The notes beneath the pieces were generated by a model. It was not told the origin of the DNA, did no database searches, and saw only the letters and a list, made by a program, of their open reading frames with translations. Shown here one piece after another: positions 13,518 to 62,659 of a DNA stretch of 64,000 nt. The stretch covers positions 35,634 to 99,633 of the forward strand of contig JACQZO010000020.1 of NCBI GenBank assembly GCA_016207805.1, given 5' to 3'. Source of the stretch: Candidatus Abawacabacteria bacterium. GTDB lineage: Bacteria > Patescibacteriota > Gracilibacteria > RBG-16-42-10. Positions within the stretch are counted from its first letter, which is position 1; each line of letters opens with the position of its first letter. The translations under genes were made by a program, and so were the position numbers.

Positions 13518-13582
13518 ATTTTGTCACCAACTATTGAACAGACAAAGGCAAATCTCTACACTAAAAGCAACTATCCATTGTG

Positions 13583-15307
13583 ATGTCGACAATATGTAGC
13601 AATTGTCAAAATACGTTTCTTATTAGCGAAAGTGACCAAGCATTTTATCAGAAAATTGCTCCTTTTTTTGCTGGTCAAAGTTATCCAATCCCTCCGCCCA
13701 CCCTCTGTCCTACTTGTCGTCAGCAAAGACGGCTGGCCACTAGAAATGATGACACGCTTTATAATCGTAACTGTTCAAAGTGTCACAAAAGCATCATTTC
13801 TATTTACCCAGAAGTAAAAGAATATCCTGTATATTGCAGCGCTTGTTGGTGGTCAGATCAGTGGGACGCTGGAGATCATTATGAAGAATACAATTTTAGT
13901 AAAAGCTTTTTCCCCCAATTCGAATCATTAAGAGCAAAAGTTCCACGCTTAGGGTTGATCAATAGAAATGCCGAAAATAGTGAATATACTCATTACACTT
14001 CTCATAATAAAAACTGTTATCTCATTTTTAATGCTGATGATAATCAAGATTGCTATTACTCTCACTCATTAGATGCTTGTCGCGATTGTATAGACATGTA
14101 TTGGTCAGGAAGATCAGAACTATGCTATGAGGGAATCTCAGTTGGAGCCAGTTACAATAGCCAGTTTTGTACTCATGTAGAAAATATGAGTGACTGCTAT
14201 TTTTGTTATGACTGCAAAGATTGTCATCATTGTTTTGGCTGCTTCAGCTTAGATCACAAAGAATATCATATTTATAATCAGCCTTATTCAAAGGAAGAAT
14301 ATGAAGAAGGAATACAAACTATTAGAAAACAGAAAAAAAGTCACACAGGCCTGATGGCTCTCAAAAAAGAGGTGGCACAGTTTTTTCTTACCTTACCCCA
14401 TCAATACGCCACTATTACTAATTGTGAAAATTGCACCGGAAATTATTTAGTTAGTTGTAATAACTGTATCAACTGTTTCAATCTCACTCGGGCTCAAGAT
14501 TGTAAATATATTTATGATGGCAGCAACATCAAAGATGCTTATGATGGCAACTTTTGCGGTCTTCAGAACTCACAGCTGATGTACGAGGTACAAGACTGTT
14601 GGTTTGGTTATCAAATGTTTTTTTCTACTACCTGCTGGAATTGCAATAATATGTATTATTGTGATCATTGTTTTTATTCTAACAATTGTTTTGGTTGTAT
14701 TGGTTTACGAAGAAAGGAATATTGTATTTTGAATAAACAATATACGAAGGAGGAATACGAAAAGCTGGTACCACAAATTATTAAGCAGATGAGTGGTGGT
14801 AGCAAGAATGAAGATACAGAGGAGCTAAGACGCAGACAAACACAAAGACCAAGACAAGAGGAGGCACTAGAAGGAAGACAAGAATGGGAATGGGGGGAGT
14901 TTTTTCCTATGTCTTTGGCACTGTTTGCATACCATGAGACTATGGCACAACAGTATTTCCCTCAACCGGGAAATGCAGCCCAAGTAGCCATATCAACTAC
15001 AGATTCTCTACCTGATACTATTGATGCTATTGGCGATGGGATTCTACAAAGTACCCTTCATTGCTCACAATGCCAAAAAGGCTATCGCATAGTCCCACAA
15101 GAACTTGCCTTCTATCGCCAAAGAGAATTACCAATACCGAGGAAATGTTTCATGTGCCGCCAGTCTGATCGTGTAACTTTATGTTTAGAACGAAAATTGT
15201 ATGAACGTCACTGTCATAAATGTAACAGAGAACTTTTATCCCCTTACCAGGTTGATCGCCCTGAAACTATATTCTGCAATCAGTGTTACTTAGATTATCA
15301 TCATTAG
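13583..15307 (+). CDS. Cys-rich family, array member 7 (N1+ N2+ C1+ C2+) with charged insert
   Basis: ATG at 13583 (GTG at 13580 is also possible). CSNCQ..CPTCRQQRR..RNCSKCHKSIISIY..VYCSACWW. C-module CSQCQKGYRIVPQEL..CFMCRQ..HCHKC..IFCNQCY. Unique insert SKNEDTEELRRRQTQRPRQEEALEGRQE just before WGEFFP. Sister of member 10. Confidence 0.9.
   Translation: MSTICSNCQNTFLISESDQAFYQKIAPFFAGQSYPIPPPTLCPTCRQQRRLATRNDDTLYNRNCSKCHKSIISIYPEVKEYPVYCSACWWSDQWDAGDHYEEYNFSKSFFPQFESLRAKVPRLGLINRNAENSEYTHYTSHNKNCYLIFNADDNQDCYYSHSLDACRDCIDMYWSGRSELCYEGISVGASYNSQFCTHVENMSDCYFCYDCKDCHHCFGCFSLDHKEYHIYNQPYSKEEYEEGIQTIRKQKKSHTGLMALKKEVAQFFLTLPHQYATITNCENCTGNYLVSCNNCINCFNLTRAQDCKYIYDGSNIKDAYDGNFCGLQNSQLMYEVQDCWFGYQMFFSTTCWNCNNMYYCDHCFYSNNCFGCIGLRRKEYCILNKQYTKEEYEKLVPQIIKQMSGGSKNEDTEELRRRQTQRPRQEEALEGRQEWEWGEFFPMSLALFAYHETMAQQYFPQPGNAAQVAISTTDSLPDTIDAIGDGILQSTLHCSQCQKGYRIVPQELAFYRQRELPIPRKCFMCRQSDRVTLCLERKLYERHCHKCNRELLSPYQVDRPETIFCNQCYLDYHH
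14827..14864 (+). repeat. heptamer-repeat-like segment inside the member 7 coding sequence
   Basis: aagacgcagacaaa (14827-14840) and gaccaagaca (14847-14856) match exactly the inverted-repeat arm at 41761-41784 that flanks a four-helix-bundle gene. Confidence 0.75.
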
Positions 15308-60922: not shown

Positions 60923-62659
60923 ATGATCCGCATTCTCCCCGAACATGTCATCAATCAAATTGCTGCTGGAGAAGTAGTAGAGCGCCCAGCTTCTATTGTA
61001 AAAGAATTGATAGAAAACAGTTTAGACGCCAAGGCTGATCACATCGTGATCAATTTACGCAATGGTGGCAAAGGATTAATTCGGATTAGTGACAATGGTA
61101 CTGGTATCGCCCCAGAAGAATTAGACCAAGCTGTGCTTCGTCATGCTACTAGCAAAATCGCCAAGATTGAAGATTTAGATCATGTGCTCACTTTAGGCTT
61201 TCGCGGTGAAGCATTGGCCAGTATCGCTTCAGTAAGCCAGATGTATCTTGAAAGTAAAACATCAACGAGTAATAGCGCAAGTACTATTACCATGGACCAT
61301 GGCCGTATCGAGAATAAAAATACCGCAGCGCGCGAACAAGGAACCACGGTCAATATTGAAAATTTATTTGCTAAGATTCCTGCTCGCCGCAAGTTTCTCA
61401 AAAGTGATCGCCAAGAATTGGCAGTGATTGTGCGTCTAATCCAAGAAATCGCCTTAGCCAATCCCGCTGTTCATTTCGAACTCAATCATAATGGTCAAGA
61501 ATTACTAAACACACCGCCAAGAAAAAGCTTATTAGAAAAGTTTTATGACATTTTTCCCAGTCCCGATTTGCCAGGGAAAATGATGGCCATTGAACAAGAA
61601 GAAAATGGCCTAAAACTGCAAGCAATTATTTCTCAGCCAATCATAAAACGCGCCAGCAAAGGACAACAAATGGTAGCAGTCAATCAGCGCACCATTCGTG
61701 ACTATCGTATTAATAAAACCATTGAAGACGCCTATCATACTTTTCTGCTCAGTTCAGAACATCCAATATTCTTCCTTCACCTATCAGTAAACCCTCAAGA
61801 AATAGACGTCAATGTCCACCCCCGAAAAAATGAGGTGCGCTTTGAACATTTGGACCACATACTAAGCTTCATTTATCGCTCAGTGAAAGGAACCCTAGAA
61901 AAGCAGATTCTGTCAGTTAACCCAAGTTTTAATTCGAAATTCGAAATTCCAAATGCACAGTTGAGCCCCACTTCGAACTTCGAATTTCGCACTTCGCACT
62001 CCCCATCAAATTCCGTAGCCTCTCCCTCAAATACATATCAAGCAGCCCAATTCAATCAATTATTTACAGAGGAAACGCCTCCTCGGCCTATCAAGGTTGT
62101 AAGCCAAATCAAGAATTCTTATATTTTGTGTACTGCAGAACAAAGTCTCATTTTGTTTGATCAACATGCAGCCCATGAACGCTTTATTTATGAAGAATTA
62201 AAAAAAACTAGAGCACAAAAGAGTACTCAGCAATTGATGAACCCACTAGAATTGACAGCCACCGCTGAGCAAAGCATTTTATTAGCTGAGCAACAACAAA
62301 ACTTTGCCAATTTTGGTATTCAGTTAGAACAAAGCGGCCCTAATAATTGGCTAATCACAGACGTTCCTAATATGCCCCGTTCATATAAAATTGATTGGTC
62401 ACAAGTTGTACTCAATAGCTTAGATCAAGTACATGCTGAATCTCTAACTCATAGCCTGCAAGATCACGAAGATGACATTTTGCACACTATGGCCTGCAAA
62501 GCAGCAGTAAAGTTTAATGATCATTTAAGTCTCAGTGAATTACAGCGCCTCATAGATGATGTCGCCTATTTACCAGGCATCTATACCTGTCCCCATGGGA
62601 GGCCGTTTAGATTAGAGCTGACTTTTAATGAGTTAGATAGATATTTCAAGAGACACTGA
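60923..62659 (+). CDS. mutL: DNA mismatch repair protein MutL
   Basis: 578 aa. IRILPEHVINQIAAGEVVERPASIVKELIENSLDA, GFRGEALASI, C-terminal CPHGRP. Confidence 0.95.
   Translation: MIRILPEHVINQIAAGEVVERPASIVKELIENSLDAKADHIVINLRNGGKGLIRISDNGTGIAPEELDQAVLRHATSKIAKIEDLDHVLTLGFRGEALASIASVSQMYLESKTSTSNSASTITMDHGRIENKNTAAREQGTTVNIENLFAKIPARRKFLKSDRQELAVIVRLIQEIALANPAVHFELNHNGQELLNTPPRKSLLEKFYDIFPSPDLPGKMMAIEQEENGLKLQAIISQPIIKRASKGQQMVAVNQRTIRDYRINKTIEDAYHTFLLSSEHPIFFLHLSVNPQEIDVNVHPRKNEVRFEHLDHILSFIYRSVKGTLEKQILSVNPSFNSKFEIPNAQLSPTSNFEFRTSHSPSNSVASPSNTYQAAQFNQLFTEETPPRPIKVVSQIKNSYILCTAEQSLILFDQHAAHERFIYEELKKTRAQKSTQQLMNPLELTATAEQSILLAEQQQNFANFGIQLEQSGPNNWLITDVPNMPRSYKIDWSQVVLNSLDQVHAESLTHSLQDHEDDILHTMACKAAVKFNDHLSLSELQRLIDDVAYLPGIYTCPHGRPFRLELTFNELDRYFKRH
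61931..62003 (+). repeat. heptamer-periodic inverted repeat inside the mutL linker coding region
   Basis: aattcga aattcga aattcca aatgcac ... cacttcg aacttcg aatttcg cacttcg cactccc. cgaaattcgaa (61935-61945) is complementary to ttcgaatttcg (61979-61989). Translated in frame as NSKFEIPNAQLSPTSNFEFRTSHS. Confidence 0.75.

Follow-up and report, generated by a model that had tools for sequence, protein, structure and literature searches.

The window, the whole 64,000-nucleotide stretch of DNA analysed here, corresponds to positions 35634-99633 of contig C16 in the genome of a CPR bacterium (genome G000; C-numbers below denote its contigs). The genome is a MAG of 1.23 Mb in 28 contigs, with 40% G+C and an estimated completeness of 96%. 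Within the window lies member 7 of a Cys-rich family of 39 paralogs (27-42% identity to member 7). This family makes up about 5% of the genome, its genes being found at 985-43998 of the window and on five other contigs, and it has more than 6,000 relatives in databases, every one annotated as hypothetical. An AlphaFold model of member 7, based on 120 sequences, reached a pLDDT of 87.5 overall and a pTM of 0.89, and its comparison with the PDB gave no match below E = 2.6. The reading frame is intact and the conserved C-terminal CxxC motifs are all kept. The gene and the segment that sets it apart are located as follows:

13580-15307, plus strand: member 7, 575 residues, Cys-rich, treble-clef zinc fingers at both termini; belongs to the 39 paralogs
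14804-14887, plus strand: the insert, 84 nt or 28 codons, in frame and without stops, as placed by DNA decomposition
14792-14875, plus strand: alternative placement of the insert, from the protein alignment

By aligning all 39 paralogs with MAFFT we identified a clean insertion of 28 residues that is confined to member 7. It follows a helix that ends in ...IIKQM and precedes the WGEFFP motif, at a site that is otherwise constant in length across the remaining 38 paralogs. None of the seven orthologs (539-546 residues, 55-60% identical) has the insert, and it is also missing from the closest ortholog in the compared genomes, that of G005. When the insert region was searched alone against 5.8 billion proteins, the window's own protein was the sole match. 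Since the segment is missing from paralogs, orthologs and protein databases, it is derived rather than ancestral to the subfamily, and it is unique to member 7. An earlier note on this DNA had described an extra segment of about 28 amino acids before WGEFFP in member 7 alone, and the paralog alignment and the orthologs bear this out.

The limits of the insert are ambiguous over about 12 nt, depending on whether the protein alignment or the DNA decomposition is followed. By DNA decomposition it comprises residues 409-436 of member 7 and encodes ...KNEDTEELRRRQTQRPRQEEALEGRQEW; it is Arg-rich and includes the peptide stretch EELRRRQTQRPRQEE. AlphaFold gives a pLDDT of 56-79 over residues 405-435, against at least 95 on both flanks, and places a low-confidence loop between the helix at 390-404 and WGEFFP. 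This prediction fits an exposed, flexible, charged loop. The suggestion that the segment is tolerated as a charged loop thus agrees with the model as far as the loop is concerned, on the basis of a prediction, and we consider the product probably neutral for the function of member 7. The segment is presumably translated into protein. The mRNA fold around the insert was no better than that of shuffles (z = -0.9), and the idea of an mRNA hairpin was rejected on this ground.

The DNA of the insert resembles that of hairpin repeats found elsewhere in the genome. The genome contains about 234 short arrays with a period of 6 or 7 nt (median 31 nt, 4.5-5 units), usually located in spacers as inverted pairs, that is, as hairpins. 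Six of the seven PF05635 genes lie within inverted arms of about five units, and the unit differs from cassette to cassette (AATTACG, AATCTAR, GGCAGAR, AGAGCTR, AGACNN and GAATGRA). Large ORF-less array families use these same cassette units, as if each had one gene-bearing 'master' copy. Most of these cassette PF05635 genes are preceded by a TTTCATAAT motif. Two cassettes are present in the window:

37857-38343: PF05635 cassette
41754-42247: PF05635 cassette 2, made up of the following three parts
41754-41795, plus strand: left arm, GATCAT followed by AGACGC AGACAA AGACCA AGACAG A AGACAGG
41796-42149, minus strand: PF05635 gene in the loop, encoding a 117-residue four-helix bundle (23S rRNA intervening sequence protein, E = 2.4e-19)
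42206-42247, minus strand: right arm, an inverted copy of the left arm

The AGACNN family to which cassette 2 belongs has 16 full copies of GATCAT-(1-3 nt)-(AGACNN)x5-AGG genome-wide. Most of them are arranged in inverted pairs, giving stems of about 45 bp around loops of 12 to about 400 nt, and one further arm is solo and truncated. The third unit is frequently ACACNN or ATACNN. All copies are intergenic, between protein genes. A location in rRNA was considered and rejected, none of the hairpins being found in rRNA genes; the single 23S gene (C21:17465-20461) measures 2997 nt against a model of 2925 positions and contains no large insertion. The inverted repeat runs 5-7 nt past GATCAT, into flanks that are copy-specific yet complementary. 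Hairpins with such extended complementary flanks are found at C5:23605-23787, C6:26752-26935, C7:18514-18625, C18:10033-10145 and C25:5164-5262. The two arms of one element also have private variants in common, for example ATACTA in both C25 arms, which points to either selection for pairing or arm-to-arm conversion. The GATCAT-(AGACNN) family is missing from 30 relatives, a genome of the same genus included, as are the AGAGCTR arms.

One part of the insert is directly comparable with these arms:

14827-14856, plus strand: the insert core, AAGACGCAGACAAACACAAAGACCAAGACA, 30 nt in five AGACNN/ACACNN hexamers, corresponding to one complete arm core

The core reads R-R-R-Q-T-Q-R-P-R-Q, the AGA-CNN frame of a hexamer arm giving Arg followed by Gln, Arg, Pro or Thr. 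It is identical to the arms at C18:10102-10131 and C7:18580-18609 at 27 of 30 ungapped positions, including an ACAC variant in third place, where genuine arms carry it. With the cassette 2 left arm it shares 24 of 24 positions, the core having one extra unit. Compared over 28 positions with the arms, the best agreement is 25 and the median 22, within the arm-to-arm range. A profile of the 16 arms (nhmmer, 2.5 Mb, E < 1) recovered, apart from the arms and the truncated solo arm, two sequences only, namely the insert (E = 8e-4 genome-wide) and an acidic linker.

The likeness had been noticed earlier through two exact matches, which we confirm: AAGACGCAGACAAA occurs at 14827-14840 and 41761-41774, and GACCAAGACA at 14847-14856 and 41775-41784. 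Genome-wide, the 14-mer has two occurrences in 1.23 Mb, both in the window. The inference drawn from it, that such a match is not expected by chance in 64 kb, does not stand, as we estimate that about 15 such pairs would be expected in random sequence. The valid statistic is therefore the match to the arm family as a whole, namely the nhmmer E value, the 27 of 30 identities and the fact, described below, that 300 other genomes lack the pattern. The matching arm had also been called a heptamer repeat; it actually consists of hexamers (AGACNN x5), and TRF reports period 6 at both the core and the cassette 2 arm.

TRF calls both sites AGACAA arrays, as would also be expected if the core had grown in place by slippage of an Arg-Gln codon pair (AGA CAA), its likeness to the arms reflecting shared AGAC-rich hexamers and preferred codons. 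A GAATGG GAATGG tandem duplication within the insert is typical of slippage as well. An unrelated acidic linker, EDEDTDQDEEEE, of an SLH-like protein (C6:17959-17988, E = 4e-3) also yields an AGACNN-like run, read in another frame, an example of how purine-rich coding sequence of low complexity can imitate such runs. However, slippage into a coding microsatellite should give homogeneous units, and the five units of the core are heterogeneous (GC, AA, ACAC-AA, CA, AA), exactly five in number, with ACAC in third place as in the arms. The heterogeneous five-unit pattern is missing from 300 other genomes of the class, which lack the arm family; a five-unit pattern occurs in them at three loci, every one a perfect microsatellite. 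Since the heterogeneous pattern is found in just the genome that owns the family, an independent origin of such a run is improbable. Moreover, the AGACGC-AGAC start of the core is rare, with three occurrences in the genome of which the two others are in arms, and the insert also bears recognisable sequence of another arm family. We thus regard slippage in situ as unlikely, and that the core belongs to the AGACNN arm family, from which its sequence is indistinguishable, as well supported. The C6 linker itself ends in ...AGACGAAGAGGAGG, like the 3′ end of the member 7 core, and may represent either chance or a second capture.

Mis-joins in assemblies classically arise at repeats, and the genome is a MAG in 28 contigs, so that a chimeric join could in principle have put repeat sequence inside member 7. 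We consider such an assembly artefact highly improbable. The segment lies within a 175-kb contig, keeps the reading frame exactly and contains no stop. Conserved codons of the same gene are colinear on both its flanks, and both arm copies in the insert differ from every other copy in the genome.

The second arm family was recognised in the sequence around the core, where the insert can be decomposed into an outer shell and an interrupting segment:

14804-14822, plus strand: 5′ piece of the outer shell, AAGAATGAAGATACAGAGG, aligned with the right arm C19:55446-55476(-) over its initial 20 nt
14823-14879, plus strand: interrupting segment, 57 nt, consisting of the AGACNN core with 4 nt on its 5′ side and 23 nt on its 3′ side
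14880-14890, plus strand: 3′ piece of the outer shell, AAGAATGGGAA, identical at 11 of 11 positions to the 11 nt that follow in that C19 arm

The matched sequence C19:55446-55476(-) is the right arm of a heptamer hairpin of the AAGAATG/GAATGRA type. In a whole-genome scan that tolerates long gaps, the two outer pieces, which are contiguous in the C19 arm, agree with it at 29 of 30 positions plus one gap (score 42), and the best other window outside the AGACNN type scores at most 32. The 5′ piece alone scores 30, top genome-wide yet no outlier. Most simply, these matches suggest an arm within an arm, in which a heptamer arm of about 27 nt would later have been interrupted by a 57-nt segment bearing a hexamer arm (27 + 57 = 84 nt). 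We put the odds on this nesting at about even, because the 3′ 11-mer overlaps Glu-Trp codons that may be native and because 27 nt of the interrupting segment (4 + 23) match nothing. Orthologs also carry K-N at positions similar to the outer-arm match, and those codons could likewise be native.

Other derivations of the outer sequence were considered and rejected. The 5′ part aligns colinearly with 41716-41743 (score 20, P about 0.01-0.05), as if cassette 2 had been copied directly with its flank; this derivation is superseded by the GAATGRA-type arm, which fits the same bases better (30, or 42 in the split alignment). An AGAGCTR-type origin had been read into GAGCTAAGA, which precedes the core. 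That string has about eight occurrences outside arrays, which is chance level, and the AGAGCTR-arm profile, built from 26 arms, does not match the insert; a heptamer origin of GAGGAGCTAAG fails likewise, the 9-mer being at chance frequency. Putative target-site duplications (AGAGGAG x2, AAGAATG x2) are at the level estimated for chance at this purine-rich composition, about two pairs per 100 nt, and direct repeats of 7-8 nt within the insert are equally expected (an estimated two pairs or so). The length of 84 nt had been given meaning as a multiple of both 7 and 3; it carries no weight, as 84 can equally be written 14 x 6 and an insert has to be a multiple of three to be retained at all. Neither a GTCT-type partner arm nor a GATCAT terminus was found in or near the insert. 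With a lone arm per family and no GATCAT terminus, the segment is therefore not the insertion of a whole element.

Arms occur in further genes of the same genome. In TrmD (C9:38280-38312) an insertion of 11 residues relative to the E. coli protein coincides exactly with an AATTCAG array. In ArgRS (C7:90753-90784) 33 nt, or 11 codons of the conserved anticodon-binding helix, have been overwritten at unchanged length by a perfect AGAGCTG-type arm, so that KAENEEQKASR of the same-genus ortholog, whose DNA is unrelated here, reads RAESEELRAER. In-frame arrays are also present in linkers of PriA (C27:5880-5912), DnaX (C18:22137-22166) and a DHH protein (C7:26262-26388), and within the window in the interdomain linker of MutL (60923-62659), where two partly complementary AATTCGA and ACTTCGA arrays at 61931-62000 encode NSKFEIPNAQLSPTSNFEFRTSHS.

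The ArgRS case, together with an array in a THUMP methylase that entails almost zero net insertion, raises a different account of member 7, in which ectopic gene conversion gave part of an older, unrelated loop insert the sequence of an arm and the arms did not cause the gain in length. The 27 nt of the inner segment without explanation would also be accommodated in this way. Against this, TrmD shows arms adding length, and the orthologs and paralogs have no extra residues at this site, so that any earlier insert would have to be equally young. Overwriting of a pre-existing loop is accordingly an unlikely source of the 28 residues.

We favour the reading, with a probability of about 0.72, that the 28 residues are a young, lineage-specific, in-frame insertion derived from arm DNA of the genome's own hairpin repeats. 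The central proposal of the earlier note, that spacer repeat sequence entered a coding region, was kept in frame and can remodel proteins, is thereby upheld, given a core that equals a full arm, the restriction of the pattern to this genome and the arms in TrmD and ArgRS. As to mechanism, arm DNA may have been copied into sites already resembling arm units, through template switching or ectopic recombination as DNA is replicated or repaired. We propose copying into look-alike sites because of two cases, the ArgRS motif and the native Gly-Glu-Trp codons GAATGGGG of member 7, which would resemble a GAATGGG unit. Survivors would be those events of multiple-of-three length that were stop-free and fell at permissive sites; a 30-nt run of hexamers and a 33-nt run of heptamers are both multiples of three.

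The association of such arms with PF05635 genes extends to relatives. In genomes G001-G012 (loci L041-L050), with 2-11 PF05635 genes per genome, such genes likewise lie between inverted arrays of about 4.5 heptamers, and the unit depends on the cassette. Judged from these sequences, the PF05635-in-hairpin architecture is clade-wide and the unit sequences are species-specific. A diversity-generating or retrohoming origin (DGR or retrohoming) was rejected, as the genome has no match to PF00078 (reverse transcriptase); the A positions of AGAC are conserved in the arms, contrary to adenine mutagenesis.

A broader, rather doubtful proposal is that PF05635 cassettes are the 'autonomous' members of an undescribed selfish hairpin element of Peribacteria and their relatives, whose arms would spread by homology-guided copying, inserting, nesting and overwriting in coding sequence even of essential genes, with neither transposase nor reverse transcriptase. 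PF05635 proteins have a pentameric Avd-like fold, which, if the proposal is true, would fit one unit per subunit at about five units per arm, and the member 7 insert would be a two-step footprint of homology-guided arm copying. The hairpin arms are moreover tied here to the PF05635 family of 'intervening sequence proteins', a functional puzzle for decades, and this tie leads to the testable suggestion that every PF05635 paralog recognises its own arm unit. The arm families are so young that a genome of the same genus is without them, and they may thus provide a natural experiment in how selfish repeats make new protein loops and recode the conserved helices of essential enzymes (TrmD, ArgRS).

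Our search of the literature yielded no description of repeats like these, whether in Peribacteria or around PF05635 genes, and several known systems resemble them in part. The STRR heptamer repeats of cyanobacteria are tandem heptanucleotide arrays in intergenic spacers, and here too tandem heptanucleotide arrays fill such spacers. We know of no STRR arrays of fixed length that are paired as hairpins around PF05635 genes or that lie in conserved genes. MITEs and REP/BIME hairpins are likewise short, ORF-less inverted repeats, mostly intergenic and in tens of copies. Unlike them, the arms described here are internally periodic, being built of tandem units, and keep to a fixed length near 31 nt, and the inverted repeat extends into copy-specific flanks. 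In contrast to MITEs, the ORF-bearing copies encode PF05635 four-helix-bundle proteins and no transposase. The GATCAT flanks are complementary rather than direct, and a non-systematic look noticed no target-site duplication.

The intervening sequences of 23S rRNA (PMC10053308; bioRxiv 10.1101/2024.02.27.582315) are comparable in that the PF05635 gene of cassette 2 lies in the loop of a long inverted repeat. They differ in location, the cassettes here being situated between protein genes and the 23S rRNA gene being of normal length, and in structure, with stems built of about five tandem short units and ORF-less copies present genome-wide.

The closest known analogue is the insertion of Rickettsia palindromic elements (RPEs), which are found in frame within protein-coding genes (reviewed in PMC10969869). 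In both cases a multi-copy, genome-specific palindromic family has copies in frame inside ORFs, and short peptides are added, housekeeping genes included. RPE peptides lie at sites compatible with the fold, and for member 7 the model predicts such a site. An RPE is inserted as a complete element, about 100-150 bp long and encoding a conserved peptide, whereas the genes here contain only single arms of about 30 nt made of tandem 6- or 7-nt units, which can also overwrite codons at constant length, as in ArgRS. The two have no sequence relationship, and the repeats described here are linked to PF05635 cassettes. In-frame repeat capture, classically a Rickettsia phenomenon, would thus extend to a CPR host with a 1.2-Mb genome, in which single tandem-unit arms are used instead of whole palindromes.
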